From: an uncultured Gammaproteobacteria bacterium
GTDB lineage: Bacteria; Patescibacteriota; Microgenomatia; UBA12405
NCBI GenBank assembly: GCA_964463925.1
Contig: CAYXDV010000002.1
Location: 86,729 to 150,728, forward strand
Length of the DNA: 64,000 nucleotides
Direction: 5' to 3'
This document shows positions 5,671 through 59,809 of this stretch, in pieces (position 1 is the stretch's first letter; each line of letters begins with the position of its first letter). A program made the position numbers and the translations under genes. Below the pieces are notes generated by a model. That model worked only from the letters and a program-made list of their open reading frames with translations, was not told where the DNA came from and made no database searches.

Positions 5671-8343
5671 CTAAAAACTAACCCCGCAGGCAGCAAAGCC
5701 GATACAGCCAAAAATACGGGAAAATAAAGAACCAATAATTGGCAAAAACGATAAAATACTACCCATTGAGTCAAGCTGGTAATGCAAATGAGGGCCAGTA
5801 GAATTTCCAGTCGATCCCTCAAGTCCTAACACAGCCCCTCTACTAATTTGGCCAAATACCAAAGGATAGCTCAACATGTGTCCATATAAGGTAGTAAAAT
5901 CTATCTTTTGCTTTGTGTCAGGATTTTCACACTGACCTTCCACAACTACATAATTTCCAAAGATAGGGCTGTACCCAGCTTTTTTTACCAAACCATCGTG
6001 AGTGGCATAAATCGGTGTTCCCGCTATATTTGCCAAATCAACTGCCTGAGCTCCACTATGTGAACTTGTAGTCATTGGACCCTGAGTCATATAAGCGTGA
6101 TCAAGTGGCCAGCCAGAAGGGCACGAAGATGGTATTACTCCTCCAGGATATTTTCTGGCGTCAAACATAACAAAACTGGTTGCCGGTTTTGGTGGAACCA
6201 AAGAGGATATATTTATTGCAATAAACATTTGGTAAACAAACAACCCAATGAATACAGCAACGATAACTGGCATCAAAAAAGCTAAACTAATTCCAGTTAT
6301 CGCAGCCCCAAGTACAACCACAATATCTTCTGCAATTCCAGCCATAAAACCAGGAACTTTTCCAAAATTTTCTTCCACAAATTTTTTCAATCCTATATGT
6401 ATTCCCAAATCAGCCAACAGTCCTTTTATTTTTCCAGAAACTAATCCCAAAACATCTTTAGCAATCAAAACCAAACTAACTATTGTTCCAGCCCCAGGAA
6501 TTGCTACATTAATTCCCAATCTAGTAGCTATCCAAGAGGCAGCCTTGGTCACAACTCCCCCAGACAATTTGCCCAAAGCTACCTGAGTTCCTTTTACCAA
6601 CCCATCAGCTCCCAGCTGACTTATAACTTGTTTTATTAATTGCTCACCGCCCAGTGCTTCTAAAACTTTTTTGCTTATTCCCGAAACAGACAGATTACTC
6701 AGCTGTTCTATTTTTCCCAGCTTGCTAAGCATTTCCGCTTTACCTAATCGTTGTCTTATCTGTTCAAGCATTGCCTTCCCTTTTTCTCCACTAGTAGCCC
6801 TAATTGCATTATCCAAAGCGCCAATTCTATCTCCTAAGCCTCTAATTCCGTATCTAGACAGTATTCGCATATCCTTGTTAAATCTTTCTGAAAGCACATC
6901 CACTTTCTCTTGTGGCATTGCAGCTAATCCAATCAAACTTTCTACACCCAACAAAGCTTGCTTAGTCTCCAGATTTTTTTCCAAACCGAGCTGAATTCTT
7001 GATAACTCCATTATTCTTGCCATAGGACTTTCATGTACTCTTCTTGTTGTTTCAGAAACACTAGCAGCCGCCTCCCAGATTTGCTTTTGAACTTCCGGCT
7101 TTTTTGTCAAAAATTCAGGACTTCTTTTCATAAAAACTAACTCTCGCTTCATTTGTTCTTCCAAAAACCCAGATTGTCTTACTAAAACCAAAGTCTGGTT
7201 TTCAACAATTACTTTTTCTGCAGCTACTACCACTTTTTTGGCCAACATTGGAGCAGATTCTGTTCCGACAATTGTTGCAATCTTTGAAGTTAGCTCTTCA
7301 TTAGTTGTCGAAGAGAGTATTGTTTCTTCCAAAACTTTTGCTAACTGTCTCTGTTGTTTTTCCTCCTTCAAATCAGCTAATCCTTTTGCAGTCTGCAAAA
7401 CTATATTGCCCAGAGATTCTTTGGCAATATAGTTGTTTATCTTCTGTTGCAATTCCTGCAAAACAACTGAACTGGCCTGACTCAGCTTAAGTTCTTCTTG
7501 TCTGGCTACAACCGACATTGCACTTACCAAATCTTGTTCGCTCACCAATCGATTTTCACTTTCTTTTTTTACATAATCTAATATTTTTTGTGCCCCAGTC
7601 TCTGGAATTTTCAAATGCGAAGCTATTTCGACTTCCATTAGAAGTTGATCTTTTGCCGCTTCCCTAATGTCTATTTCTCCAGCAGCTTTTTCAGTTTTTT
7701 TTATTTCAGCAGCAGTTTTTTCTTGCCGTTCCAGCCAAAATCTAACCACTTTTTTGGCTTGATCTGGGTCTAGCCCGCCAACAAATCTGGCAACCAAAGC
7801 TTCCGCCTCCTCCTTATTTTTGCCTTGATCTAAATATTGTTGATATTCCTCCAAAAGTACGGCTAAATCTTGTGAATTAAGTGATCTTGGGTCAAATTCC
7901 CTGGGATTGCTACGTGTTTGGCCAACATTTATCTGGTCTAATTTAGCTTTAAACGAAAACAATAAAGGAATATAAGGGCCAATCTCGTCACTTTCTTTCA
8001 CATAAACATTGACTCCTGGATAATAAATTGGATATACATCTTTAAAAAAGTTACTTACACTTCCGTACAAACCACTTTGCTCCAAAGTCACTGCCCCCTT
8101 GCTACTCGCTTCTTGCAACTTTCCACCTAATTCAATTGCATACTCCGTTAACTTAGGATTATCTACATGGGTAATAGAGGTACTCCCGGCAATCTGTGCC
8201 ATCTTGCCAAACAACCCAACTTTCTTGTCTCCAATTACTTCTGCTTTTGGACCAAACAAACCCTCCACCAAACTTTTAGGTCGTTTTTTTTCATTACCAT
8301 CGATTTCAACGAGGTCCACCCTTATTTTTGTATTATCTGTCAT
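5671..8343 (-). CDS. large T4SS-associated cell-wall hydrolase with a C-terminal M23/LytM peptidase domain (VirB1/PrgK-like role)
   Basis: 890 aa. A long helical N-terminal region, then a TM cluster (GFMAGIAEDIVVVLGAAITGISLAFLMPVIVAVFIGLFVY), then an M23 signature (HDGLVKKAG...GSTGNSTGPHLHYQLD). It is adjacent to the VirB4-like ATPase. Confidence 0.7.
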   Translation of the reverse strand: MTDNTKIRVDLVEIDGNEKKRPKSLVEGLFGPKAEVIGDKKVGLFGKMAQIAGSTSITHVDNPKLTEYAIELGGKLQEASSKGAVTLEQSGLYGSVSNFFKDVYPIYYPGVNVYVKESDEIGPYIPLLFSFKAKLDQINVGQTRSNPREFDPRSLNSQDLAVLLEEYQQYLDQGKNKEEAEALVARFVGGLDPDQAKKVVRFWLERQEKTAAEIKKTEKAAGEIDIREAAKDQLLMEVEIASHLKIPETGAQKILDYVKKESENRLVSEQDLVSAMSVVARQEELKLSQASSVVLQELQQKINNYIAKESLGNIVLQTAKGLADLKEEKQQRQLAKVLEETILSSTTNEELTSKIATIVGTESAPMLAKKVVVAAEKVIVENQTLVLVRQSGFLEEQMKRELVFMKRSPEFLTKKPEVQKQIWEAAASVSETTRRVHESPMARIMELSRIQLGLEKNLETKQALLGVESLIGLAAMPQEKVDVLSERFNKDMRILSRYGIRGLGDRIGALDNAIRATSGEKGKAMLEQIRQRLGKAEMLSKLGKIEQLSNLSVSGISKKVLEALGGEQLIKQVISQLGADGLVKGTQVALGKLSGGVVTKAASWIATRLGINVAIPGAGTIVSLVLIAKDVLGLVSGKIKGLLADLGIHIGLKKFVEENFGKVPGFMAGIAEDIVVVLGAAITGISLAFLMPVIVAVFIGLFVYQMFIAINISSLVPPKPATSFVMFDARKYPGGVIPSSCPSGWPLDHAYMTQGPMTTSSHSGAQAVDLANIAGTPIYATHDGLVKKAGYSPIFGNYVVVEGQCENPDTKQKIDFTTLYGHMLSYPLVFGQISRGAVLGLEGSTGNSTGPHLHYQLDSMGSILSFLPIIGSLFSRIFGCIGFAACGVSF

Positions 8344-8351
8344 TGCCTAAA

Positions 8352-10736
8352 TTATACCGTGCTTCCAAACAAATCCTCATAGCTTAATTTTGGCTTTTCT
8401 TCCGGTTTCTTTGCTTCTTCTTTTTTTACAACTATTGTTTCATTTTTAATCGGTGCTTTAGGTAGTGGTGGTAATGGCGGCAGGGGAGGTAGTGGTGGTA
8501 ACTTTTTTGGTGTTGCTAAGCTTGGTTTTGCTTTAAACAAATCTTGGTATTTTGGCAAGCTGCCAAGCATTCTTTTCCTTTCCTCCTCTTCTTTCAATCT
8601 TTCTTTTTCCTTTTCCTCTTCTTCCTCTTTTTGTTTTTGATTATGAATTTCTATCTCAGCACTTGCCTTTTGTTCTAAATTTGCAATTTTATCCGCCAAA
8701 TCCTGATGAACAGTCGGTTTTTTAGTTTCTTCTACCTCTACTTTTTCTAGCACTCTAGCAGTTTCAGGCTCCTTTTTTAATGCAACTGTCGCTATTTCAA
8801 CCGCTGGTGCCACTATTTCTTTTATCATCGGCAGTTCAACCTTCTTGGTTTCTTCATTTCCAGCTTCATTTGTTTTTTGTTCCAAAACTTCATTCATCAA
8901 TTTCAAATTGGCCTTTTGCATTGCAATTTTTTGCTTCATTTTTAGCACTTCTTCTGGATTAGAAGTTATCAAAGCATGTTCTTCTGGACTGGCAATTACC
9001 CGTAAAGCCACATGATTTGAACCAGCAAAAAATATTCCTTGTCCTTTGTCAGCCGACAAAAGTAATTGTTTTTCTCCCTCAGATAAATAGAATGTTTCGC
9101 CAACTTGGTCAATCGCAGCACTATGTTGTTTTAACAATATTTGAATAGAACTATTTGTCACAATATCTCTACCATAAGGGGCATTCAAAAAATCCCCCAC
9201 ATCTTGAGTGATTGTTGTTACAGCCAAATAATATTTTCGACCCCGTTTTACCACACCTCTTAAAAAGGCCGCAGAATCTGGATATTGCATCATATACCAA
9301 GCCTCATCCACCACCAAAATTCGTTTCTTCAAAGTCTTTTTAACTGTCGTCCATATATAGTCCAAAATAATATGCATGGCCACTGGCCTAAGGCTCTCTT
9401 CTAAGTTTCGAATCCCAAAAACAACAAAATTACTCTTAAGGTTTACTGTTGTTTTTTGGTTAAAAATTCCAGCAAAAGATCCTTTTATATATTTCTCAAA
9501 TCTGGCAGTCAAAATCTTTGCCTTTTCATCTTCCATCCCAAGTAATGATTTGTATAAATCTTCGATCAAAGGAGCCTCTCGTTTTTGAGTTTCCGGATCA
9601 GGAGTTATACCTTTCATTTTATAAGCATCAACAATTGCTCTGTCTAAAATTGATTCTTCTAATGGATCCAAATCACCAATCATTACCTTAAACAACTTAT
9701 GCAAACCTAAAATTTTATCGTTTAGGGCGTTTTCTCCCTCATCTTGAACCAATGACAAATCAAATGGGTTTATTTTACTTTCTTCACCATAACCAAAAGC
9801 CACATATTGACCCCCCACAGACTCACACATCTCCCGATATTCATTTTCAGGATCAATTACTATTACATCAGTGTCAAACATTAAGCTTCGCATAGCCTCA
9901 AGTTTAACCAAATATGATTTTCCAGAACCAGCTGATGCAAAGACCACTGAATTGTAATTTGGCATTGAAAATCGATCAAAAATTACCAAGCTCCCGTTAT
10001 GTTCATTAATCCCATACATAATTCCCTTATCGTCAGATAAATCTGAAGACACAAAAGGAAAAGTTGTTGCTAGACTAGTTGTATCCATATTTCGGGTAAT
10101 TCCGAGACTATCCTTACAAATTGGCAAGGTTGTTGTAAAGCCACCTTCCATTTCCAAAGTAGCTTTTTTTGTTGTGATCATCAAAGCTCCTAATCCGCTC
10201 TCAAGATTTTTTGTTATTTTGTTAAGTTCATCCCTATCTTTGGCCGAAATTGTTATATACAGTCCAAATTGAAAAAATCTTTCTTCACCTTTGACCAAAT
10301 CAGTTTGCAAAGTTAGTGCATCTTCCAATTTTGCTTGAGTTGCCGGGTTTACTATTTTCCCTCTCTGAATATCAGTTGTCAGTTCAGCCTCCATTTCAGC
10401 AATCTTTCGCCTCAAGTCATCTAATATTTCTTTGCCATCTGTGGGATAAATATACATAGAAATTGATAAGCTGGCGTCAAAATTGATCAAACCAGACAAC
10501 CAATTCATTCCTACGAATCTAGGATAACCAGAGACAAAAAGGGTTCGATAATAACGACCATCAATTCGGATAAAATCCCAATCAACTTCAATAGCCCCCG
10601 GAGCAATCACATCTTTAATCGACACCAATCCCTCTACAAAAGGTTTGGCCCCATTCGCCACCGTTTCTGCTTTTGCAGATTCAACTTCAGTAGTTTTCTG
10701 CTTATCTTTCTTAAGTAGGGCAAGTATACTTTTCAT
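8352..10736 (-). CDS. VirB4/TrbE/PrgJ-family type IV secretion ATPase with a C-terminal acidic coiled-coil and proline-repeat extension
   Basis: 794 aa. VirB4 N-domain (YYRTLFVSGYPRFVGMNWLSGLI), Walker A (VVFASAGSGKSY) and Walker B (ILVVDEAWYMM). The C-terminal ~190 aa are atypical: EEEEEKEKERLKEEEERK followed by LPPLPPLPPLPPLPK. Confidence 0.8.
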   Translation of the reverse strand: MKSILALLKKDKQKTTEVESAKAETVANGAKPFVEGLVSIKDVIAPGAIEVDWDFIRIDGRYYRTLFVSGYPRFVGMNWLSGLINFDASLSISMYIYPTDGKEILDDLRRKIAEMEAELTTDIQRGKIVNPATQAKLEDALTLQTDLVKGEERFFQFGLYITISAKDRDELNKITKNLESGLGALMITTKKATLEMEGGFTTTLPICKDSLGITRNMDTTSLATTFPFVSSDLSDDKGIMYGINEHNGSLVIFDRFSMPNYNSVVFASAGSGKSYLVKLEAMRSLMFDTDVIVIDPENEYREMCESVGGQYVAFGYGEESKINPFDLSLVQDEGENALNDKILGLHKLFKVMIGDLDPLEESILDRAIVDAYKMKGITPDPETQKREAPLIEDLYKSLLGMEDEKAKILTARFEKYIKGSFAGIFNQKTTVNLKSNFVVFGIRNLEESLRPVAMHIILDYIWTTVKKTLKKRILVVDEAWYMMQYPDSAAFLRGVVKRGRKYYLAVTTITQDVGDFLNAPYGRDIVTNSSIQILLKQHSAAIDQVGETFYLSEGEKQLLLSADKGQGIFFAGSNHVALRVIASPEEHALITSNPEEVLKMKQKIAMQKANLKLMNEVLEQKTNEAGNEETKKVELPMIKEIVAPAVEIATVALKKEPETARVLEKVEVEETKKPTVHQDLADKIANLEQKASAEIEIHNQKQKEEEEEKEKERLKEEEERKRMLGSLPKYQDLFKAKPSLATPKKLPPLPPLPPLPPLPKAPIKNETIVVKKEEAKKPEEKPKLSYEDLFGSTV
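8461..8502 (-). repeat. imperfect 9-bp tandem repeat (~4.5 units) encoding the (PPL)n tract of the VirB4-like protein
   Basis: ggtagtggt ggtaatggc ggcagggga ggtagtggt ggtaac on the top strand. It is in-frame within the CDS. Confidence 0.7.
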
Positions 10737-35472: not shown

Positions 35473-36354
35473 CTAAAGTATTCTCGCGCCTCTGAATTGC
35501 CAATCATGGTAAATTTCTCCATTTGGAAAAAAAATTATCTGCCTTGCCTTTGTCGGGTCTGGGCTGTGGGTAAGGGCATTGGTCAAACATACATTTTGTC
35601 CAGCTACGTCATAGATAATTGATCCATGCCCACCTTCAAGCACAGGGACACCATTTAGGTCCAAATATCTTTTTACCTCTCTAATTTGCATATCATTTAG
35701 AAAATGTTCCTCTGTCCACCGTCCTATTTCAGTGTTTTCGCTAGTCCCTGGCTTTGCAACTCTTCGCAAAGTCAATTGGGCTACCCCCAACTGTCTGGTC
35801 CAATCTATCATTTCTCCTACTTTTTCAAAACTATCCACCCCGCCATTAAACATAGTTACCGAAAAACGAGTAGAGAAGCCAATTCGGTGCAAGTCCTCTA
35901 TTACTGCAGGCAAATTTATATATTCTTTGTCCCTGGGGGTATATACTCCACGATTCAAATCCGACCTATGGCCTACTACAGAAACTGCTACAAACCCCAA
36001 GCCCAAGTCGTACCATTTCTTTAAATATTCTTTATATTCATTTGGCTTTTTCTCAAACATTATGGCATTAGTTTGCAAATCAATTAAAGGAAATTGGTGT
36101 GGTTTCAAGTGTTCCAAATATTCTGTAATTTGATTTGGAAATAATGTCGGTTCACCTTTTCCAGTGATTACCACGCTACCAACCCTTAAATCTCGCGCCA
36201 TCCTTGCAGCAATTTCAAAATTTCTCCAATTGATTGGTTGTGGTTTCATACCCAAATGTTCAATCCCTGTCATCTTTGATACGCAAAATGGACAACTGGC
36301 GTTACAGGCAGCCGTACCACAAACAATACTAAAATTCTCAGCTTTCTCTATCAT
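35473..36354 (-). CDS. radical SAM protein (paralog of 57257..58009)
   Basis: N-terminal cluster CNASCPFC (CxxxCxxC) and SAM motif ITGKGEPTLFP. It shares CNA[SK]C[PF]FCV[ST]K[ML]T and ITG.G.P.L.P with the second radical SAM ORF. Confidence 0.8.
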   Translation of the reverse strand: MIEKAENFSIVCGTAACNASCPFCVSKMTGIEHLGMKPQPINWRNFEIAARMARDLRVGSVVITGKGEPTLFPNQITEYLEHLKPHQFPLIDLQTNAIMFEKKPNEYKEYLKKWYDLGLGFVAVSVVGHRSDLNRGVYTPRDKEYINLPAVIEDLHRIGFSTRFSVTMFNGGVDSFEKVGEMIDWTRQLGVAQLTLRRVAKPGTSENTEIGRWTEEHFLNDMQIREVKRYLDLNGVPVLEGGHGSIIYDVAGQNVCLTNALTHSPDPTKARQIIFFPNGEIYHDWQFRGARIL

Positions 36355-37291
36355 TTTTTTCCTCCTCTAAAAAATAAGGGGTCAAACAAAATCTATAAGT
36401 ATCTCCACGGGCATATTTAGTTAAATCCATCTCACCATCACCTATCTCTATCTTCTCCTTTGGCATATTTGCCAGTAAAACAACTTCACTCGGTTTTGCT
36501 TTCAATCCAAAATTGCGATTAAGTCTAGAAACCGCCTTCTGTTGCTTTTGTCGATATTTTTGTACTAAATCCAGGCTATTAACATTGGCCAAAACCCGAC
36601 TCGCTACCATTATCGAATAAACATTTTTAAACCATTTGTTTACTTCCAAAGTTGGCAGGGGATAACGGGCAAATATGGCCCCTATTCGCAGGTAGTACAG
36701 GCCAAAGGGCTTGCTCATGGAAGCTACTACAGCTTCAATTGCCGGATGATTTACATTAACTTTTAATTCATCAGTTAGCCCTATGTAAGTGGCATCGTAA
36801 AAAATCCTGTGCCCAGAATTCAGAATATTTTTCCAGTCTGACTCGTTAAAGCTGTTACCATCTTTTGCCTTTGGATTAGATACAAACAAAATTCCTGGTA
36901 ATTGTTGTCCGAGGTCTTTAGTCGACTCAACCGTTATACAATTTATTCCTAAATTCTTAGCATACCCTGCATAGCCTTCGTATTCACCATTCAAAGTATA
37001 CAGTTTTACCGCAGAATTTATAGATTTTTCTCTAGCCAATAAATGGAAAATTGCTTCCGATGCTCCACCAGTTATATATGACTCGGGATATTTATCTAGT
37101 CCTGCCAGCTGTTTTGCCAAATATCGACGATACTCATCCAAAAAGGGTTTATGAAAGTCATCTAATCCAGGGTCAACCGATCTTAATAAAACGCGGTTTA
37201 GTTCTGTTGGTTTTACAGATTCAATAACCTCTCTTACTTCCGGAAACAAATAGCTATAAACTGGCTTTAATGGCTGTATTTTCTCTCTCAT
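36338..37291 (-). CDS. PLP-dependent class I/II aminotransferase-fold protein (short)
   Basis: GGASEAIFHLL, YDATYIG and the PLP-lysine motif SMSKPFGLYYLRIG. The start overlaps the stop of the radical SAM gene. Confidence 0.55.
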   Translation of the reverse strand: MREKIQPLKPVYSYLFPEVREVIESVKPTELNRVLLRSVDPGLDDFHKPFLDEYRRYLAKQLAGLDKYPESYITGGASEAIFHLLAREKSINSAVKLYTLNGEYEGYAGYAKNLGINCITVESTKDLGQQLPGILFVSNPKAKDGNSFNESDWKNILNSGHRIFYDATYIGLTDELKVNVNHPAIEAVVASMSKPFGLYYLRIGAIFARYPLPTLEVNKWFKNVYSIMVASRVLANVNSLDLVQKYRQKQQKAVSRLNRNFGLKAKPSEVVLLANMPKEKIEIGDGEMDLTKYARGDTYRFCLTPYFLEEEKNDRES

Positions 37292-37349: not shown

Positions 37350-38012
37350 TCAGGCGAAATATTGAATACTTCTTTTTACAAAACGGTACATTCTTGCAGG
37401 TCTAAAAGCACCTTCTTTTATCTTATCTACCTTTTCTACCAAGCCCAACTGCAACATTTTTTTTCTAAAATTTCTTTTATCAAGTGGTCTACCCCAAATA
37501 ATTTCATAAATATGTTGCAATTCGGTCAAAGTAAATTCTGTGGGTAGTAGGGCATAGGCCACATTGGAGTAAGCTATTTTATCTTGTAACCTAGCTGTTG
37601 CCGTTTTTATAATTTTTTCATGGTCAAAAGCCATTTTTGGTAATTTATTGACGTCAAACCAAGCCATATCTTGGTAATAATCTGGCTTCCTTATTTCTAA
37701 CTTTTCAGCCATATTTAGTAATAAAAAATAAGCCACAGAGATTGCTCTACTTCGCAAATCACGGTTCAGTTCTCCAAAAGTATATAGCTGTTCCAAATGT
37801 TTAATTTTAAGATTGGTCTTTTGTTCCATTACTCTTTCTGCCGCTAAATCCAAGGTTTCCCCGGATTGAACCAAACCACCGGGAACTGCCCATTTTTTAG
37901 CGTACATACCTTCTTTAATTTGCAGCAAGAGAACTTTTAATCTGTCATCCAAAATACTTAAAACCACAGTATCAACAGCAACCTTTGGTGACAACAAATT
38001 TGTTTTTGTCAT
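37350..38012 (-). CDS. NUDIX hydrolase with a C-terminal extension
   Basis: Nudix box VPGGLVQSGETLDLAAERVMEQKTNL, plus ~90 extra C-terminal residues. Confidence 0.75.
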   Translation of the reverse strand: MTKTNLLSPKVAVDTVVLSILDDRLKVLLLQIKEGMYAKKWAVPGGLVQSGETLDLAAERVMEQKTNLKIKHLEQLYTFGELNRDLRSRAISVAYFLLLNMAEKLEIRKPDYYQDMAWFDVNKLPKMAFDHEKIIKTATARLQDKIAYSNVAYALLPTEFTLTELQHIYEIIWGRPLDKRNFRKKMLQLGLVEKVDKIKEGAFRPARMYRFVKRSIQYFA

Positions 38013-46712: not shown

Positions 46713-49700
46713 CTAGACTAGTTTTACTTTGCCACTGCGTCCGAATTTATTCCACCCCACCAGTTTTCCCTCTATAATTGCCAAAAAAGATTTGAAACTA
46801 ATTACATACATAATTTGACGAAAAAATAAACGTTGTACAAAAAGCCATCCTAAATCCCACAATCTTTCTTCACCTTCTAGTATCAAAGCCAAAACTCCTG
46901 CTACCAAATCCAATACTAAAAATAGTAAATAGAAGCGCAGCTGTATGACTGCATTGGTCCAAGAAAAAACCTCGGAATGTAAGTGGCTATTTATCCAACC
47001 AGTCGATAAAGTCACCAGTGCAGTTAAATCTAATAAAGGAGCCAAAATAGGAAATATAATTTGAAATATTATTACTTGGGGTATTGCTATCCAGCCCAAT
47101 CCTGGTTGCCTGAAACTAAAGCATATATCGATATGTTTGTATATTACTTGGATAGTTCCAAACATCCATCTAAATCTTTGTTTGATAAAATTATTTAAAG
47201 TCTCTGGAGCTTCTGTAAAAGCCAGTGCTTCATCTTCATATACCACCCTTTTTCCAGCCTCTAGAATTGCATATGTTAGATCTGCATCTTCTGCCAAAGT
47301 GTCGGTAGCAAACCCTCCCAACCTTAAAACTAAATCTTTTCTCCATGCACCAATCGCTCCGGGAACTACCGTAATCGCATTAATCAAACCAAAGGCTCGT
47401 CTATCTAAATTTTGCGAAGTGATATATTCAACGCTTTGAATTTTTGTCAGCCAATTAATCCGATTTCCCACTTTTACATTCCCAGCCACTGCTCCAATTT
47501 CATCATTACTAAAATGGCTAACTAACTTAGTAATTGTCTTTCTAGTAAATATTGTATCCGCATCAATAATAACCACTATTTCACCTTTGGCTTTTTGTAA
47601 CCCAAGATTAATACTGGCGGCCTTTCCAGAGTTCGGTTTATCAACTACCTTTGCTCGGGAATCCTTATTTTTACAAAGTTCTAGTACATGCAAAGTATTG
47701 TCTGTAGATCCGTCATTCACTGCTACTACTTCCAGTTTTTTATAATCAGAATTCAAAACACTATTAATGGTTCTTTCTACTACTACAGCTTCATTAAAAG
47801 CAGGAATAATCACGCTTACCAAGCCCGTAAATGTGCCTACGTCTTTCCCAAGACTTTGCTTAAGCCGAGCAATTACAGCTAATATGGATACTAATAAAAA
47901 TCTACCAAGACCTAATACAATTCCTCCAAAAAACATATAATAAAGGCAAAATCTAAACAAATCCAATAACCAAAATCCCAGCATATCCACTCTCAACATA
48001 TTCTTTTCTTCCGAGGAAACCATAGGCATAATTTGCTGCGGTGAGACACCAATTAGTGTAGACACAGGAACAATCTTCCAGCCACTATTTTGTAAAGCTT
48101 CAATCAGTTTTGGAAGTGCTAGCACAGTTTGACTTCTGTCGCCTCCACTATCATGTAGCAGGATAACCCTACCTCTATTTTCTGAAAGTTGTTTCAAACT
48201 TTCTTCAATTATTTGAGTAGAACTAGTTTTGTCCCAATCTTTTGGATCTATGCCTATGCCAACAGTATAGTAACCTAACTGACTTGATTCCATTAAGGGT
48301 TTTACTTGCTCAGGTGTTTCCGGTTCTATATCCTCGGCATAAGGCGGTCTAAATAGTAGAGTACTTATGCCCAGTCTACTCTGCAACAATCTATCAGTCG
48401 TGTTTAACTCCAATTTTAACTGGCCATAGCCAATTGCACTAATGTCTGGATGACTAAATGTATGATTCCCTAGTTCGTGCCCTTCTTTATATGTCCGCTG
48501 TAAAATATTTGTATTCTTATCAGCATTGTCGCCTGTTACAAAGAAAGTCGCTTTTATTCCATATTTCTTCAGAATATCTAATATTTTTGGGGTATAAACC
48601 GCATCAGGACCGTCGTCAAAAGTCAGAGCAACTTCTTTCTCCTTTGGTAGTCCGTGTCTGTCAATTACATAACCGCTAGGAAAAGAAAGCACTTCTTCAC
48701 CATTAATCAACCCTGATTCTGGATCAAAAGTTATTTTTCGCTGCCCCTCTTTGGGTGCCGCCACAACTTTTAAAATTTCACCGCTGCCTTCATAATCTAT
48801 GTCAAAACCATATTCCATTTTTTCTAAGTCCTGGCTTTTTGTCCTATCCAAGTCAATCTGCAAACTCCACAAATTCCACACCGCTGGGTCTTCGGACCCT
48901 AGACGCCACAAAGCGATACCCCCTATTTTTACTTTTTTTAATTCGTGGATTTGGTTAAAAACAGTAATCGAATCAGTAAAAAAAACCTTTCTTAAATTGT
49001 TGTTCTCATCGTAATATTCATAGGTAGGATTTAAATTTGTCGCATCAAGTTTAATTTTAGCTTGACTCTCTTTTGCAATCCTTATAGCCTCTTGAAAAGA
49101 TATGTCGTTGGCATTTCCTGTCTGTGGCCAATCATAGCCATAATTAGCCAATGCTACTATCATTTTTTCAGCTGGAATTCTGTCTAAATTTTTATTTATC
49201 ACTTGCACAAACCAATTTTGTGAGGCGACAGGACCACTCGGCCCCCCTGGCCAATGTTCATCATAAGCCATCACGATTACCCAATCTGCAGTTAATCCTA
49301 TCTGATGATATTCTGTCTCCGGATTATCTGCTGGTACTGATACTGCTAATTGCCAGCTATGTAGCTGCATAACTTGTTTCAATTGGCTCAAAAAAGTTGG
49401 TAGTTTCTTTTGAGAGTTAGACGATAAGTTTTCCCAATCTATTGCCAATCCCTGATAATTGTTTGACATCATATATTTGGTTAAATCTTCAATTAGTGCT
49501 TTTTGCTTGGCTGGATCATCTAATAACTTATCAATCCAATCAGTCTGCCAATCTCCAGAATTTGCTTCATAGTTATTTATCAACGGCCAAATTTCTGTTT
49601 TAGAGGAATTTTGCCTGATAAAATCAGTTATTAATTTCTCTTTTTTGGGATTATCTATCTCTATATTGCCTAATCTATTTAGATGCAGATTCTCTGGAAT

Positions 49701-50081
49701 AATCACATCTAATTTCCCAAGATTTTGTCGCAATGATGTAAAGCTAGTATCGTCCCAATTCACCACAAAACCAACTCTCTTTTCTTGGCCTGATGTCACT
49801 GGTACGTTTTGCAATGAGACTGTCGTAGGACGCGGTTTCAAGCTAAGTAGCCTGCTTTTGGCCCGACTGTACTTTGCCTCTTTATCGTTGACTACCGATC
49901 TGAGTTTCGGAAGTTTAGGAGCTTGCAAGCTTATTTCTGGTAAATGTGGTATTTCCAATATGGTTAGTCCTGTGGCTATTCCAACCAGCCCCAGCAAAGT
50001 CAATATAAAAGTTAAACTAATCCAAAAGATTTTTTTACGTCTTCCTCCTGGATCAAAAAATACAAAGTTATGGTTCTCCAT
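46713..50081 (-). CDS. trifunctional exopolysaccharide enzyme: GH18-like domain + NodB polysaccharide deacetylase + processive family-2 glycosyltransferase
   Basis: 1122 aa with an N-terminal TM. GH18-like YQGLAIDWENL. NodB motifs ALTFDDGPD and HTFSHP. GT2 motifs IIPAFNE, NDGSTDNT, IDADT and QRFRW (Q-x-x-R-W of processive beta-GTs). C-terminal TM helices. Confidence 0.8.
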   Translation of the reverse strand: MENHNFVFFDPGGRRKKIFWISLTFILTLLGLVGIATGLTILEIPHLPEISLQAPKLPKLRSVVNDKEAKYSRAKSRLLSLKPRPTTVSLQNVPVTSGQEKRVGFVVNWDDTSFTSLRQNLGKLDVIIPENLHLNRLGNIEIDNPKKEKLITDFIRQNSSKTEIWPLINNYEANSGDWQTDWIDKLLDDPAKQKALIEDLTKYMMSNNYQGLAIDWENLSSNSQKKLPTFLSQLKQVMQLHSWQLAVSVPADNPETEYHQIGLTADWVIVMAYDEHWPGGPSGPVASQNWFVQVINKNLDRIPAEKMIVALANYGYDWPQTGNANDISFQEAIRIAKESQAKIKLDATNLNPTYEYYDENNNLRKVFFTDSITVFNQIHELKKVKIGGIALWRLGSEDPAVWNLWSLQIDLDRTKSQDLEKMEYGFDIDYEGSGEILKVVAAPKEGQRKITFDPESGLINGEEVLSFPSGYVIDRHGLPKEKEVALTFDDGPDAVYTPKILDILKKYGIKATFFVTGDNADKNTNILQRTYKEGHELGNHTFSHPDISAIGYGQLKLELNTTDRLLQSRLGISTLLFRPPYAEDIEPETPEQVKPLMESSQLGYYTVGIGIDPKDWDKTSSTQIIEESLKQLSENRGRVILLHDSGGDRSQTVLALPKLIEALQNSGWKIVPVSTLIGVSPQQIMPMVSSEEKNMLRVDMLGFWLLDLFRFCLYYMFFGGIVLGLGRFLLVSILAVIARLKQSLGKDVGTFTGLVSVIIPAFNEAVVVERTINSVLNSDYKKLEVVAVNDGSTDNTLHVLELCKNKDSRAKVVDKPNSGKAASINLGLQKAKGEIVVIIDADTIFTRKTITKLVSHFSNDEIGAVAGNVKVGNRINWLTKIQSVEYITSQNLDRRAFGLINAITVVPGAIGAWRKDLVLRLGGFATDTLAEDADLTYAILEAGKRVVYEDEALAFTEAPETLNNFIKQRFRWMFGTIQVIYKHIDICFSFRQPGLGWIAIPQVIIFQIIFPILAPLLDLTALVTLSTGWINSHLHSEVFSWTNAVIQLRFYLLFLVLDLVAGVLALILEGEERLWDLGWLFVQRLFFRQIMYVISFKSFLAIIEGKLVGWNKFGRSGKVKLV

Positions 50082-54229: not shown

Positions 54230-54320
54230 TGGCGGTAGGAGAGGGAGTCGAACCCTCATGCCGCTTTTTACACGACGCAGGTTTAGCAAACCTGTGGCTT
54301 ACCATTCGCCGCATCCTACC
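54230..54320 (-). tRNA. tRNA-Ser (anticodon GCU), class II, CCA encoded
   Basis: Acceptor GGTAGGA/TCCTACC, anticodon stem CAGGT/ACCTG with loop TTGCTAA, long variable arm, T-arm GAGGG-TTCGACT-CCCTC, discriminator G, and 3' CCA. Confidence 0.85.
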
Positions 54321-54380
54321 TTAGCCAATTCTAGGCTTCGCAAGTATACCAAAGTAAGCCAAAATCGCGTATATTAAGAT

Positions 54381-54962
54381 ATGGTAGAAGCTAAAAAAGA
54401 AATAAAGGATGAAACAACTTCCACAGAAAAAAACCAGCAAGATCTAAACGAGGAAAAAGTCTGGTATTCGTGGCAGGCTCCAGTGCGAGCATTCAGACGG
54501 CAAGATACTCAATTTTGGACTACAATTCTTTCAATATTGGCCTTAGTGGCCATAATCTTCTTTTTTGCCAAAGACTTTCTGGTGATTATTCCGGCAGCTT
54601 CGGCTATTTTTTTATATTACGTCTTGTCAAGTGTTCCTCCTGAAACAGGGGAGAACAAGATCACCAATCGTGGTGTTTATTTCGGTCCAAATTTCTTTCC
54701 TTGGTCGCAAATCAGTCATTTTTGGCTCAATAAAACTGGCGACGATCATGCACTTTATTTAGAAACTTTTAGTCCCAACCTTTTTAATCGACAAGTAGTA
54801 CTTTTAGTCCCTTCCTCCGAAGTGGATCAAATAAAAGAACTTTGCCTACGCAACATACCATTAGTTGAGAATCCGCCTCGTTTTATAGACAGATTTACCG
54901 AGTCTTTGGGAAAATTACTCCCATTTGAAGACAAAGAATCCAAACCTACTCACAAATCTTAG
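54381..54962 (+). CDS. hypothetical membrane protein
   Basis: 193 aa with two central TMs (TTILSILALVAIIFFFAKDFLVIIPAASAIFLYYVL). Confidence 0.5.
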   Translation: MVEAKKEIKDETTSTEKNQQDLNEEKVWYSWQAPVRAFRRQDTQFWTTILSILALVAIIFFFAKDFLVIIPAASAIFLYYVLSSVPPETGENKITNRGVYFGPNFFPWSQISHFWLNKTGDDHALYLETFSPNLFNRQVVLLVPSSEVDQIKELCLRNIPLVENPPRFIDRFTESLGKLLPFEDKESKPTHKS

Positions 54963-54991
54963 CCGTAAGATAAGGTATAATATGCAACTTC

Positions 54992-55065
54992 GCGCCCGTA
55001 GCTTAATTGGATAGAGCATTGGTTTGCGGAACCAAAGGTTGCTGGTTCAAGTCCAGCCGGGCGCA
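54992..55065 (+). tRNA. tRNA-Arg (anticodon read as GCG)
   Basis: Acceptor GCGCCCG/CGGGCGC, D-loop with A20, anticodon stem TTGGT/ACCAA with loop TTGCGGA, T-arm GCTGG-TTCAAGT-CCAGC, discriminator A. A GCG anticodon is unusual for Bacteria. Confidence 0.7.
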
Positions 55066-55075
55066 CACATAAATT

Positions 55076-55163
55076 GGAGGGTTGGCCCAGTGGTTTAAGG
55101 CACTGGTTTCGAAAACCAGCGGGAGCAATTCCATCGCAGGTTCGAATCCTGCACCCTCCGCCA
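55076..55163 (+). tRNA. tRNA-Ser (anticodon CGA), class II, CCA encoded
   Basis: Acceptor GGAGGGT/ACCCTCC, anticodon stem CTGGT/ACCAG with loop TTCGAAA, long variable arm, T-arm GCAGG-TTCGAAT-CCTGC, discriminator G, and CCA. Confidence 0.85.
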
Positions 55164-56714: not shown

Positions 56715-57260
56715 ATGAGTTGGCTTACAGGCAATCAAATTATCCAAGAAGTTAAAAACAATAAAATATCTATCACTCCGTTTTCTCAATCCCAAGTCAA
56801 TCCCAACAGTTATGACTATCGACTTGGCCCGGTTTTAAAACGACTAAAAACTAACAGTGTCCGTATGGGCCGTAGCTGTGTTGATCCCTGCCTAGAAACA
56901 GCTATTGAAGAACTTGTAATTCCCAAAACAGGGTTGTTATTAGAGCCAGGTCAAGCTTACCTTGGCCATACCGAAGAAATTTTTGGATCCAATTATTTTG
57001 CTAGTTTAGTTACTGGGAAAAGCTCAGTAGGACGTTTGTTTATCAATAACCACCACTGTGCCGGTTTAATCGATCAGGGATTTTTAGGTCCGATAACTTT
57101 AGAAATTACTTGTCAGTTACCAACTATTGTCTATGCAGGAATGCGTCTTGGTCAAATTTTCTGGTTTAAAACTATGGGCAAAGCCAAACTATATCATGGC
57201 AAATATCAAACCAATAATTATGCCCAAATTAGTAAAATTTTTTTGGATTTAAAACAATGA
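56715..57260 (+). CDS. dcd: dCTP deaminase (dUTPase-superfamily)
   Basis: MSWLTGNQIIQEV...ITPFSQSQVNPNSYDYRLG...LLLEPGQAYLGHTEE matches the Dcd pattern. Confidence 0.8.
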   Translation: MSWLTGNQIIQEVKNNKISITPFSQSQVNPNSYDYRLGPVLKRLKTNSVRMGRSCVDPCLETAIEELVIPKTGLLLEPGQAYLGHTEEIFGSNYFASLVTGKSSVGRLFINNHHCAGLIDQGFLGPITLEITCQLPTIVYAGMRLGQIFWFKTMGKAKLYHGKYQTNNYAQISKIFLDLKQ

Positions 57261-58009
57261 AACTATACGTTATCCCAGTCGGCGCTTACTGTAATGCCAA
57301 ATGTTTCTTTTGCGTGACCAAGCTGACCCCGCAACTTAAAATGGCTGAATTTTTGTCTCTGGATTATCTTTCTCAGTTGCAAACTTTTAAGTTTGAAAAA
57401 ATCGAAATAACTGGCGGTGGTGATCCTTTACTTCATCCCAAAATCAATCAAATTATTCATAAGCTATCCTCATTTGCCCCCACTCAACTTTATACCAATG
57501 GCCTAGCTTTAGAGAAACTTAGCTCAGCAAGTCTACGGCAGCTATGCAGATTATGTATTTCCAGATCTCATTATAATCCTGCTGTTAATTGCAAATTAAT
57601 GGGTGTTCTCATAAACAATGACGATTATCTCAAACAAATTAACACCCAGGTTAATTTAAAAATGTCTGCAGTTCTTTGCCATTCAGGACTCAACTCTGAA
57701 GCAGAAATCACTAACTACATTAAGTGGGCTATTTCCCTAGGTGCCAAAGAAGTGGTTTTTCGCAAACTTTTTGACATAAAATATTCTTCAAAATATAAGA
57801 ACGAAGCCAATGTAGATCTAAATCAGATCATATCTGATCTGAAAAAACACCATCGATTAGTTGCAAGCAGCCAGGAAAAAGTTAATTTTGTAATTCTGGG
57901 TTTGCCTGTAGAAATTGAGTTGAGAAGCTGTGCTTGTGAGCTAGTCAATCCTGTTTTAAGGCCCAATGGAAAACTTTATTCAGGCTGGGGACAACATGAA
58001 TTCCATTAA
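57257..58009 (+). CDS. radical SAM protein (paralog of 35473..36354), translationally coupled to dcd
   Basis: CNAKCFFC at residues 12-19 and ITGGGDPLLHP. The start overlaps the dcd stop (ATGA). There is a C-terminal CAC. Confidence 0.75.
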   Translation: MKLYVIPVGAYCNAKCFFCVTKLTPQLKMAEFLSLDYLSQLQTFKFEKIEITGGGDPLLHPKINQIIHKLSSFAPTQLYTNGLALEKLSSASLRQLCRLCISRSHYNPAVNCKLMGVLINNDDYLKQINTQVNLKMSAVLCHSGLNSEAEITNYIKWAISLGAKEVVFRKLFDIKYSSKYKNEANVDLNQIISDLKKHHRLVASSQEKVNFVILGLPVEIELRSCACELVNPVLRPNGKLYSGWGQHEFH

Positions 58010-58583
58010 TATCTGTTTTTTTGGCCCCTCAGGTTCTGGCAAATCTATTTGTGCCAAATTTTCCCTGAACTATTTTAAAAAGAAAAATCTTCGTGCCAAA
58101 CAACTGAATATTGCTAAACCTCTACATAATATTCAAAAGTATGCCTATTCCAAATTTTTTATAAATTGCCAAGGTCAAGATGGTATATTGCTTCAGTTTC
58201 TAGCCAAACATTTTGAACCAAACTTAGGACCCAGTTATCAAAAGCAGATCGTCAAACTACAAGCCAATTACCAAGGCCAAAATTTGATAATTATAAATAG
58301 CGACTGCCGCAATAACGCTTATATTTATCTTCAGCAGCTTAATTTTATTTTTATCAAAGTGTCAACCAAATTAGAAATTATTTCCAAGCGATTAGATAAA
58401 AGGGGGGACATTAGCTTAGCTAGCAAAAGTCATTGGGTAGAACAAACTAATCTTATTCAGCCAGATTTTGTTATACACAATAATGGCACCAAACATGATC
58501 TAAAATATAGCTTGGAAAAATTATTTGATTCCAATCTGCTCCGAATCTGTCCCCAGCTTAACACTGCCGCCGCTAGCAATTAA
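57996..58583 (+). CDS. P-loop NTPase, nucleotide/nucleoside-kinase-like
   Basis: Start MNSINICFFGPSGSGKS (Walker A) overlaps the radical SAM stop by 14 nt. It has a small-kinase fold size of 195 aa. The family is unresolved. Confidence 0.6.
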   Translation: MNSINICFFGPSGSGKSICAKFSLNYFKKKNLRAKQLNIAKPLHNIQKYAYSKFFINCQGQDGILLQFLAKHFEPNLGPSYQKQIVKLQANYQGQNLIIINSDCRNNAYIYLQQLNFIFIKVSTKLEIISKRLDKRGDISLASKSHWVEQTNLIQPDFVIHNNGTKHDLKYSLEKLFDSNLLRICPQLNTAAASN

Positions 58584-58609: not shown

Positions 58610-59809
58610 ATGAGTAATGATAGTGCACCGGAAAAGGGACCAGATCTAGCTGTATATGAATGTCTCCCTAAAGATATTCTAGAAGCTTTTTTCAGTAGAG
58701 CAAGAGAATTTATGCACAAAGATCCTCGAAGTATTCTGTTTGAAGTTTTAAAAATATTTGATCCACCAAAGCCACAATTATCAAAAGAAGAATTAGACAA
58801 AAAGTATACTGATCTGCCCTCTGGAGAAACAGATATCCCCAAGCACAATCCAGAAGTTCTTAATAGAGCAAAGCCACTAGACGAATCAGACTGGAAAGCC
58901 AAAAACGAGCTCAGTTCCAATCCAGAGTACGTCGTTAATGGCATTCTTTATGAGCACCTAAACCCAAAATCATACATAGATTTAGAAACTTATCACCCAG
59001 ACCAAGCTCAAGATCATGCCGTGCTCCATATTTCTGGGCACAACGCTGCTGGGGATGGTATGACTAGTATTAGCAGAAAACTAATTAAACAGAGTTTAGA
59101 GGATAACGACAAATGGAAAAATGCTGTTCATCTTGAACTACTTATGCCAGGACAGGGATCTCCTCTACCTGATGGAGTTAGCGGTGAAGACTTATCTCTT
59201 GGCACTACTTACGAGCCTGCCTATATTCTCCAAACCCTGCGCCAGCTAAAAGTTCGTGGTATTACTTCGGTTGTAATTTGTGCCGAAAGCGCGGGTGGAC
59301 AAGCTGTTTTAAATGCCCTTGCGGCTGCCTGTTTAATAGATGATGGTTCAATGTTAGATGAGCTGCCTAGAATCGAAGGTATCTTTGGCAACGCCCCCTT
59401 AGTCAATCCATCAATTGGCCCCATGAACTATGTCAAGGGGCACACAGAACTTCTCAATCCAACAGAAATAGATGATTTTCTAATGGATAGATATGCAAAA
59501 TTTAACATACCAAGTTGTACAAGATTTACTCTTAAAGATAGAAACCGTGCAGTTGCCAATTTTCTGACCCAATTTTCTACCCATTTTCTGGCCTTTATGC
59601 ACAAAACAGATAATAGTCTTGACTCTCAACAAACCGAGCAAGCTTTCGACGCTATAAAAAACCTAGATTCCACCCTGGCAGATCTTATGACTTTTGAATT
59701 ACACGAGGCGCCAGCAAGCAGAAAAATAGTACATGTGCTTGATGTAGTTTTAAACCCAGCAGCCTATATGTTAAGAGTCCAGAAGTTCTTTACCCAACTT
59801 TCCAAATAA
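58610..59809 (+). CDS. hypothetical protein, possibly alpha/beta-hydrolase-like
   Basis: 399 aa. Candidate nucleophile elbow VVICAESAGGQAV. Weak evidence. Confidence 0.45.
   Translation: MSNDSAPEKGPDLAVYECLPKDILEAFFSRAREFMHKDPRSILFEVLKIFDPPKPQLSKEELDKKYTDLPSGETDIPKHNPEVLNRAKPLDESDWKAKNELSSNPEYVVNGILYEHLNPKSYIDLETYHPDQAQDHAVLHISGHNAAGDGMTSISRKLIKQSLEDNDKWKNAVHLELLMPGQGSPLPDGVSGEDLSLGTTYEPAYILQTLRQLKVRGITSVVICAESAGGQAVLNALAAACLIDDGSMLDELPRIEGIFGNAPLVNPSIGPMNYVKGHTELLNPTEIDDFLMDRYAKFNIPSCTRFTLKDRNRAVANFLTQFSTHFLAFMHKTDNSLDSQQTEQAFDAIKNLDSTLADLMTFELHEAPASRKIVHVLDVVLNPAAYMLRVQKFFTQLSK

Follow-up and report, generated by a model that had tools for sequence, protein, structure and literature searches.

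A coupled dCTP deaminase, radical SAM enzyme and kinase as a candidate pyrimidine deoxynucleotide module of Patescibacteria, DPANN archaea and phages

INTRODUCTION

What does a radical SAM enzyme do when its gene overlaps that of a dCTP deaminase on one side and that of a P-loop kinase on the other? The question was raised by a stretch of patescibacterial DNA of 64,000 nucleotides (the window), in which the original prediction described the three genes as a candidate nucleotide-modifying or antiviral module. We examined the three proteins, their relatives, and their gene neighborhoods computationally. The most likely role of the module is to make or remodel a pyrimidine precursor of DNA, and it is probably not an anti-phage defense system. 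The features concerned, in window coordinates, are as follows.

56715..57260, plus strand: DCD, a dCTP deaminase-family gene; 181 aa; probably of the bifunctional dUMP-forming type
57257..58009, plus strand: rSAM, a radical SAM gene of a small unclassified family; 250 aa; MoaA/viperin-like core with its own C-terminal beta domain
57996..58583, plus strand: kinase gene with a P-loop nucleoside-monophosphate-kinase fold, type K2; 195 aa; alternative start at 57966
57257..57260, plus strand: ATGA stop/start overlap of DCD and rSAM; 4 nt; read from the sequence
57996..58009, plus strand: overlap of the rSAM and kinase genes; 14 nt
37350..38012, minus strand: NrtR-type Nudix/winged-helix regulator (Pfam NrtR_WHD at 91 bits plus a NUDIX domain), a putative regulator of the module

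RESULTS

The three ORFs overlap start-on-stop at the positions originally claimed, and the operon-style co-expression proposed for them is supported. The same overlap lengths, 4 nt and 14 nt, were found in another family locus (L008, the 14-nt overlap at 6743-6756), and the junction seen most often across the family loci is a 4-nt overlap of rSAM and DCD (14 loci); thus, the pattern in the window is not due to chance. An alternative ATG at 57966 would lengthen the kinase to 205 aa, an extension kept in the closest relative only. Scanning the surroundings of the triad for promoters and terminators gave results no better than those for shuffled sequence. The identification of the genes as a genuine DCD, a genuine radical SAM enzyme, and a kinase-fold protein was borne out in each case.

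The window DCD exceeded the threshold for the DCD/dUTPase fold by a wide margin (Pfam PF22769, 108.9 bits against a cut-off of 27) and matched the PHROG 1663 dCTP deaminase family at 122 bits, while its score against the TIGR02274 equivalog, 87.2 bits, was slightly under the cut-off of 92.8. Its best solved relatives are the bifunctional dCTP deaminase-dUTPases of Mycobacterium tuberculosis (Rv0321; E value of 1e-18) and Methanocaldococcus jannaschii (MJ0430; 5.5e-17), and Escherichia coli Dcd was matched at an E value of 7e-4 only. The catalytic residues S103/S104, R107, D120, and E130 are at least 90% conserved among 41 module DCDs, in which the GKSSVGRL and AGLIDQGFLGPITLE motifs of the window protein are also conserved. 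By sequence, the window DCD probably resembles the dUMP-forming enzymes Rv0321 and MJ0430, with which it shares the catalytic Ser, Arg, Asp, and Glu; it differs from them in its score against TIGR02274 and in the translational coupling of its gene to rSAM, and its bifunctionality is a prediction. A cluster with two DCDs (L026) was polysaccharide-related and was set aside.

The rSAM protein carries the predicted CNAKCFFC cluster motif near its N terminus (C12-x3-C16-x2-C19, residues 12 to 19) and GGGDP downstream (residues 53 to 57). With its CxxxCxxC motif, a GGE-type SAM motif, and a partial TIM-barrel fold, it belongs to the radical SAM superfamily. Its family is tiny, with approximately 45 clusters among 1.84 billion representatives, and it reached no threshold in Pfam, NCBIfam, PADLOC, PHROGs, or the PDB, by sequence or by fold. 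The profile-HMM comparison suggested with the original prediction was carried out, and all cut-offs were failed: 49.8 bits against 284 for the MoaA equivalog TIGR02666, 25.7 against 180 for viperin (NF038283), and 19.5 against 131 for NrdG (TIGR02495). The score was also below the QueE family threshold, which together with a queC/queD context would mark a QueE, and the protein could not be assigned to that family. No large glycyl-radical enzyme gene of the NrdD type adjoins rSAM. Structurally, rSAM falls between MoaA, viperin, and BlsE. However, it is shorter than MoaA (250 aa versus approximately 330) and lacks the CX2CX13C auxiliary-cluster motif, no molybdenum cofactor genes lie near the module, and no MoaC-type neighbor was recurrent in 47 loci, in which neighbors were clustered by mutual similarity and recurrent clusters alone were annotated. 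The family profile matches viperin-like chains over residues 9 to 126 only, in the generic N-terminal half, which indicates that the substrate-binding C-terminal half is unrelated. Outside the SAM cluster, the only conserved cysteines are C100, which is invariant, and C225/C227 (at least 90%).

In two family members (P0036 and P0085), the rSAM domain is fused to a zinc cytidine/dCMP deaminase (PF00383) in place of a DCD neighbor. These fusions tie the chemistry of the family to C-to-U deamination of a nucleotide. Enzymes of the zinc "dCMP deaminase" family can act on dCTP, dCDP, or dCMP (PMC12697855). The identity of the substrate therefore does not follow from the fusions, and the argument that both deaminases converge on dUMP is weakened, since CDA-fold enzymes can take dCTP.

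The kinase has a Walker A P-loop, the NMP-kinase fold, and the conserved catalytic Arg and Asp. It has the dNMP-kinase fold of the T4 gp1 type, matching the phage dNMP kinase family phrog_139 and the T4 gp1 structure 1dek; no Pfam or NCBIfam model assigned it to a curated family at cut-off. Across the loci, the kinase position is filled by two distantly related NMP-kinase-fold families, K2 and the thymidylate-kinase-like K3 (EGPDCSGKST and FDRSH motifs), which align with each other at an hhalign probability of 72%.

Among non-redundant loci with enough sequence on either side, 30 of 33 contained all three genes, in the orders K3-rSAM-DCD, DCD-rSAM-K2, and rSAM-DCD-K2. The trio occurs in Patescibacteria, in DPANN archaea, and on T4-like phage contigs, and it has stayed together although its gene order was shuffled, its kinase was replaced, and it was transferred among bacteria, archaea, and phages. 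The family is present in, among others, GCA_964442385.1, GCA_023473595.1, JBBSXA01, JAUYMA01, CAYPFA01, and the 737-kb contig Ga0598292_0000001. The phage carriers are known from metagenome contigs only: one combines the module with rIIA and rIIB (L061) and another with rIIB and NAD salvage genes (L133). IMG/VR contained no true rSAM family member and no K2 kinase, and INPHARED gave only 25%-identity matches in unrelated contexts. Partial forms also occur. In L001, the family member adjoins no DCD and no recognizable kinase. L135 has DCD and K2 without rSAM; a 331-kb T4-like jumbo phage carries DCD and K2, likewise without rSAM, beside a Mom-like gene. A literature search returned no paper describing a DCD-rSAM-kinase module, which agrees with the claim that a nucleotide-modifying module of this kind had not been described before.

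The neighbors of the module are housekeeping or phage replication genes. The regulators among them are NrdR, NrtR-like, and wHTH proteins. The NrtR-like protein of the window scored 195 bits against the regulator encoded immediately upstream of kinase-rSAM-DCD in two loci (L013 and L016), and related regulators lie upstream (L024) or downstream (L027) of the module in sister loci. L007, L008, and the sister locus L025 have an NrdR gene upstream in divergent orientation, and the NrdR link comprises these three loci. Conserved short motifs are present in their spacers, but none of them matches the canonical NrdR box, and the search gave nothing in the window spacer. In archaeal loci, AAA_28 nucleoside-kinase-like proteins, CYTH triphosphatases, and CTP synthase are encoded near the module, and phosphatase and HD genes lie close to some loci. 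No ThyA or ThyX was found in the window and the fetched loci, which cover a fraction of each genome and were searched with approximate reference sequences. A 399-aa ORF had no family match in Pfam or NCBIfam.

Two other genes had been linked to the triad. The second radical SAM gene (35473-36354, minus strand), described as a clear paralog, proved to be a distant relative only, with 25% identity over 187 aa (E value of 4e-10 by pairwise BLASTP), mostly in the generic N-terminal core. Together with a PLP enzyme it makes up a widespread pair of its own, and it adjoins the triad in L018 and L021 only; we rejected a role for it in the triad pathway. The apt gene downstream, cited in favor of a salvage pathway, encodes a bona fide adenine phosphoribosyltransferase (132.8 bits, cut-off 125); however, its position beside the triad is not conserved. 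We also considered Ophion, a three-gene defense system of a radical SAM enzyme, a PHP protein, and a phosphoribosyltransferase (bioRxiv 10.1101/2025.09.30.679545), and rejected it because there is no PHP domain and the Apt is bona fide and not conserved beside the triad.

DISCUSSION

We lean towards reading the triad as a self-contained pyrimidine deoxynucleotide pathway, running from deaminase through radical modification to a dedicated kinase, and not as a defense system. The reading is based on the retention of the trio in shuffled orders, the swap of DCD for a nonhomologous deaminase in P0036 and P0085 and of K2 for K3, the proximity of DCD to dUMP-forming bifunctional enzymes with the catalytic residues kept, and the fact that the nearest relatives of rSAM (MoaA, viperin, and BlsE) all act on nucleotides or nucleosides. 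Nucleotide enzymes and regulators as accessory neighbors, carriage by T4-like phages, and the match of the kinase to the phage dNMP kinase family and T4 gp1 point the same way.

We infer the following scheme, from the substrate and the sequence of reactions to where the radical attacks and what becomes of the product. DCD would deaminate dCTP and probably also remove pyrophosphate, as in its closest solved relatives, to yield dUMP or dUTP. The rSAM enzyme would cleave SAM at its N-terminal [4Fe-4S] cluster, and the resulting 5'-deoxyadenosyl radical, aided by C100 and C225/C227, would transform the deoxyuridine nucleotide on the base or the sugar. The dNMP-kinase-fold protein would then rephosphorylate the product monophosphate into the dNTP pool, as thymidylate or a thymidylate-like noncanonical nucleotide for DNA synthesis.

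Such logic would parallel phage modified-base pathways, such as T4 gp56 dCTPase, gp42 dCMP hydroxymethylase, and gp1 dNMP kinase or the 5-hydroxymethyl-dUMP routes of thymidine-hypermodifying phages (PMC5889632, PMC8989533), in which a dNTP is converted to a dNMP, modified as the monophosphate, and passed to a dedicated kinase. T4-like phages themselves carry the module, and its kinase matches phrog_139 and 1dek. In contrast to those pathways, the module starts with a DCD-fold deaminase and has a radical SAM protein in the middle position in place of a ThyA-fold hydroxymethylase, and its carriers are mostly cellular Patescibacteria and DPANN. The phage dU-DNA pathway of dCTP deaminase, dUMP kinase, and dTMP/dTTP hydrolase (PMC12697855) likewise pairs a deaminase with a dedicated dNMP kinase, and the DCD-K2 pair of L135 and the phosphatase and HD genes near some loci recall it. 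However, its deaminases have the zinc CDA fold, it has no radical SAM enzyme, and dU-DNA is unlikely in the cellular carriers of the module.

Some observations count against the pyrimidine pathway. Radical chemistry at uracil C5 is not an obvious way to reach thymidylate, L001 lacks a DCD and a recognizable kinase, and the NrdR link is confined to three loci in which no canonical NrdR box was found. In addition, Patescibacteria are reported to keep thyA in their minimal gene repertoire (PMC12455944), which leaves no evident need for a substitute thymidylate synthase.

The antiviral interpretation, whether viperin-like or through dNTP depletion, was not supported. In its viperin-like form, the kinase would feed an NTP to rSAM for conversion to a chain-terminating ddh-nucleotide, and DCD would convert or diversify the product (for example, ddhCTP to ddhUTP) or deplete dCTP. 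We regard this as very unlikely, because rSAM falls far below the viperin cut-off and aligns in the generic N-terminal half alone. The PADLOC search suggested earlier detected no defense system; it gave only weak pVip matches for rSAM (33 and 31 bits) and none for DCD, including to its models of defensive dCTP deaminases, or for the kinase. As far as we know, the dCTP deaminases established in defense have the zinc CDA fold and not the DCD fold, which also speaks against the antiviral interpretation. Unlike pVips, which are associated with nucleotide kinases, the module has an obligatory DCD partner and a nondefense context of housekeeping or phage genes with NrdR and NrtR-like nucleotide regulators. 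Local GC content is native, and a factory for chain terminators would be difficult to square with carriage by T4-like phages. The original prediction had named outcomes that would count against it, namely housekeeping families for rSAM and the kinase, or a triad universally conserved in a housekeeping context; the triad does occur in nondefense contexts, but rSAM is not QueE, MoaA, or NrdG, and the triad is rare rather than universal.

Alternatively, rSAM could act before the deaminase, with the ribose of CTP or CDP as its target, by an RNR-like 2'-deoxygenation with C100 and C225/C227 as the reducing pair or by another sugar rearrangement, with the kinase or kinases supplying CTP from salvaged CMP or cytidine and DCD channeling the deoxy product to dUMP for thymidylate synthesis. 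MoaA and viperin, to which rSAM is computationally closest, abstract H3' or H4' of the ribose from NTPs, and the extra cysteines, the divergent NrdR, a repressor of ribonucleotide reductase genes, in three loci, and the AAA_28, CYTH, and CTP synthase genes of the archaeal loci are consistent with such a role, as is the salvage dependence of hosts with reduced genomes (PMC12455944). However, only pyrimidines would be supplied, a conserved reductase partner is absent, no canonical NrdR box was recognized, and phage dCTP-deaminase-plus-dNMP-kinase pathways fit the trio equally well. These points, together with the fact that we know of no radical SAM enzyme that reduces ribonucleotides directly, make this explanation unlikely. 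We consider it more doubtful still that the linkage is regulatory only, with a housekeeping DCD and a thymidylate-type kinase sharing an operon with an rSAM that acts on something other than a free nucleotide, as in RNA or protein modification or cofactor maturation. Such an arrangement would suit an rSAM with no assignable family, L001 without partners, and the jumbo phage with DCD and K2 alone, but the rSAM-deaminase fusions in two lineages, the conserved translational overlaps, and the persistence of the trio through shuffling, kinase replacement, and transfer argue against it.

A more speculative reading, which we consider less likely than not, is that rSAM catalyzes a kind of reaction new to the metabolism of deoxynucleotides. 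It could provide a radical-SAM route leading to thymidylate, or to a noncanonical pyrimidine dNTP that is incorporated into the genomic DNA of Patescibacteria and DPANN cells and of their phages. Alternatively, it could reduce a cytidine ribonucleotide by radical-SAM chemistry that needs no glycyl radical. If so, the enzyme would represent a new class in DNA-precursor synthesis, in organisms with minimal genomes.

Overall, the module consists of three soluble, tightly conserved enzymes that have moved between two domains of life and their viruses, and its central enzyme stands outside every characterized family. Since Patescibacteria and DPANN live on salvaged nucleotides, an extra pyrimidine pathway would bear directly on how they build their DNA. 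A noncanonical product would mean a modified DNA precursor pathway common to cells and phages, and a canonical product would mean a third way to thymidylate or a new way to deoxycytidine nucleotides.

Organization of the triad and its surroundings

The ORF coordinates of the original prediction held, with the dCTP deaminase-family (DCD), radical SAM (rSAM), and P-loop genes overlapping start on stop by 4 nt (ATGA; DCD/rSAM) and 14 nt (rSAM/P-loop). The relevant window genes are as follows:

56715-57260, +, DCD-like ORF
57257-58009, +, rSAM ORF; protein N-terminus MKLYVIPVGAYCNAKCFFC, GGGDP at residues 53-57
57996-58583, +, P-loop ORF (family K2); alternative ATG at 57966
35473-36354, -, second radical SAM ORF
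37350-38012, -, NrtR-type Nudix/winged-helix regulator; 195-bit homolog of the regulator at the head of the L013 and L016 operons

Around the triad, transcription signals did not exceed the chance level. The second radical SAM protein, previously called a clear paralog, is a distant superfamily relative that shared only 25% identity with the triad protein over 187 residues. With an adjacent PLP aminotransferase-like gene, it forms its own conserved two-gene module (35473-37291, -; L136-L140), which was found in more than 560 clusters from Patescibacteria and Pacearchaeota and often lies between rpsG and fusA; homologs directly follow DCD in L018 and L021.

The window is a bacterial chromosome encoding DnaA, ClpB, PyrD, and tRNAs, with a gene content resembling that of a reduced Patescibacteria-type genome. 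The triad had the GC content of its surroundings, and its flanks were not phage-like. Three tRNA genes (54233-55160) lie about 1.5 kb upstream, with no integrase or phage genes nearby. A 399-aa ORF between the kinase gene and apt (58610-59809, +) carries an AESAGG (GxSxG-like) motif; it had no family match, and its position next to the triad is not kept at other loci. Elsewhere, GH18, polysaccharide deacetylase, and GT2 (chitin-synthase-like) domains occur together in a 1122-aa protein (46713-50081, -), and a TraG/VirB4-like P-loop ATPase (794 aa) adjoins an 890-aa protein whose C-terminal domain is an M23 peptidase (5671-10736, -), a pair suggestive of type IV secretion or conjugation-like machinery.

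Properties of the three proteins

DCD was a solid dCTP-deaminase-family member (PF22769, 109 bits) that narrowly missed the TIGR02274 equivalog cut-off. Among solved structures, its best matches were two bifunctional enzymes that form dUMP, from M. tuberculosis (E 1e-18) and M. jannaschii (E 5.5e-17), whereas E. coli Dcd matched far more weakly (E 7e-4). The window protein retains intact catalytic motifs, which are conserved to at least 90% across 41 DCDs of related loci.

The rSAM protein reached no threshold among curated family models, scoring 49.8 bits for MoaA (cut-off, 284), 25.7 for viperin (180), 26.4 for QueE (260), and 19.5 for NrdG (131), with 33 bits for the PADLOC pVip model, which has no curated cut-off. 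Membership in the viperin, MoaA, QueE, or NrdG family was rejected on these scores and on the lack, in each case, of the defining C-terminal or context features. The family profile aligned with viperin-like chains only over residues 9 to 126 and with MoaA over residues 7 to 170; judging from these alignments, the protein has a substrate-specific C-terminal part of its own. Additional cysteines, C100 (invariant) and C225/C227 (at least 90% conserved), may be catalytic or ligate a small auxiliary cluster. The family is tiny: 5.8 billion proteins yielded 43 clusters, and 1.84 billion representatives yielded about 45 at 50% identity, with scores in the latter set then falling steeply to a sister group. 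A sister radical SAM group of about 400 aa (rSAM') has the arrangement NrtR-K2-rSAM'-DCD-DCD in Bacilli and Lachnospiraceae MAGs.

The window kinase is an NMP-kinase-fold protein for which curated family models offered no family. Its Walker A motif and Asp and Arg residues are invariant, and it matched a phage dNMP-kinase PHROG (E 1e-7). Across loci, the kinase slot is occupied either by K2 or by the distantly related, thymidylate-kinase-like K3 (hhalign probability, 72%), which carries the motifs EGPDCSGKST and FDRSH and has the SPbeta prophage protein YorR as its best solved relative (E 4e-11). Directly upstream of K3 in several bacterial loci (L017, L019, L077, and L080; e.g., L019 4739-5428) lies a cysteine-rich 218- to 229-aa protein with CPFC...C.C and GCYVC..PCEC motifs and no Pfam match.

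Conservation and distribution of the module

Family loci were drawn from species genomes, metagenome contigs, and single look-ups, and 47 were left after dereplication at 90% identity. The triad is a conserved module: of 33 loci flanked by 600 bp or more to each side, DCD directly adjoined the rSAM gene in 31, and all three genes were present in 30. Most archaea and Patescibacteria have the order kinase-rSAM-DCD, and the window's clade has DCD-rSAM-kinase or rSAM-DCD-kinase. The family representatives P0036 and P0085 lack a DCD neighbor and instead carry a zinc cytidine/dCMP deaminase domain fused to rSAM. This exchange of one deaminase for another of unrelated fold is the strongest evidence linking the rSAM chemistry to the C-to-U deamination of nucleotides. 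CDA-fold deaminases accept dCTP, dCDP, or dCMP (PMC12697855), and the fusions therefore leave the substrate unfixed.

Recurrent accessory genes encoded an AAA_28 kinase, a CYTH triphosphatase, and an NrtR-type Nudix regulator, with CTP synthase or phosphatases occasionally nearby. In other Patescibacteria (L013 and L016), close homologs of the window NrtR-type regulator immediately precede kinase-rSAM-DCD operons, and more distant ones lie upstream (L024) or downstream (L027) in sister-group loci, which hints at a shared regulon. NrdR was encoded divergently upstream of the module in L007 and L008, as well as in sister locus L025; no canonical NrdR box was found. A divergent winged-helix protein accompanied the module in 20 of the 47 loci. 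A 280-aa protein is transcribed divergently from the archaeal version of the operon (L010 4030-4872, -, and 19 other archaeal loci); it has a winged-helix-like signature at its N-terminus, matched no Pfam family, and is probably a local regulator.

The module occurs amid housekeeping genes on large archaeal contigs (737 kb and 98 kb) and also on T4-like phage contigs (L055, L061, and L133). Besides a homing endonuclease, L061 encodes rIIA (271 bits) and rIIB (217 bits); L133 encodes rIIB, a sigma factor, and a GIY-YIG protein, together with genes for NAD salvage. The gene order was DCD-167-aa ORF-rSAM-K2 in L133, L134, and L055 and DCD-rSAM-135-aa ORF-K2 in L061. The NAD salvage set, accompanied by a sigma factor (L133 11024-19139; L134 4679-12794), comprises NAPRTase, NAD synthase, and isochorismatase/nicotinamidase. 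In L057, the module lies amid a phage-type NAD ligase, Dam methylase, and dCMP deaminase. A 331-kb T4-like jumbo phage (L135; Gp23, T4 portal, and terminase) carries DCD-228-aa ORF-K2 and lacks the rSAM gene, the middle ORF encoding no radical SAM protein; genes for a Mom-like DNA-modification protein and a PglD-like acetyltransferase lie upstream (L135 4451-10492). In a rough NJ tree, K2-linked rSAMs formed one clade, which divides into a phage subclade and another of cellular origin that includes the window. No true family members were found in IMG/VR or INPHARED, from which we conclude that phages with the module are either rare or unclassified.

Proposed role of the module

We lean toward a pyrimidine deoxynucleotide pathway rather than defense, because the trio outlasts order shuffling, replacement of both kinase and deaminase, and transfer among bacteria, archaea, and phages, and because nucleotide-metabolism regulators lie nearby, the third enzyme is of the dNMP-kinase type, and phages carry the module. 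Regulator proximity and phage carriage, together with the subthreshold viperin score, speak against the viperin-like antiviral role initially proposed, which we consider very improbable. The CDA-type dCTP-deaminase defense system (PADLOC) and Ophion were ruled out as identities of the module. Purely regulatory linkage of genes that stay together through such reshuffling seems quite improbable. An unlikely alternative places rSAM upstream of the deaminase, in a ribose-directed, RNR-like reaction on CTP; it is suggested by the kinship with MoaA/viperin, the conserved cysteines, and the nearby NrdR. As a caveat to the favored pathway, thyA reportedly belongs to the minimal repertoire of Patescibacteria (PMC12455944).

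The closest analogy is with phage modified-nucleotide routes, in which a canonical dNTP is converted to a dNMP, modified, and rephosphorylated by a dedicated kinase, as in the T4 gp56/gp42/gp1 and 5-hmdUMP routes; dU-DNA phages likewise combine Dcd with dUMP kinase (PMC12697855). By this analogy, DCD would yield a dU nucleotide, rSAM would transform it, and the kinase would phosphorylate the product, an order that we propose with less confidence than the class of pathway. As originally suspected, we found no literature description of a dCTP deaminase-radical SAM-kinase module. Overall, we rate the module as belonging among nucleotide-level pyrimidine remodeling pathways, a kind already known, although new chemistry in its central step is a real possibility.
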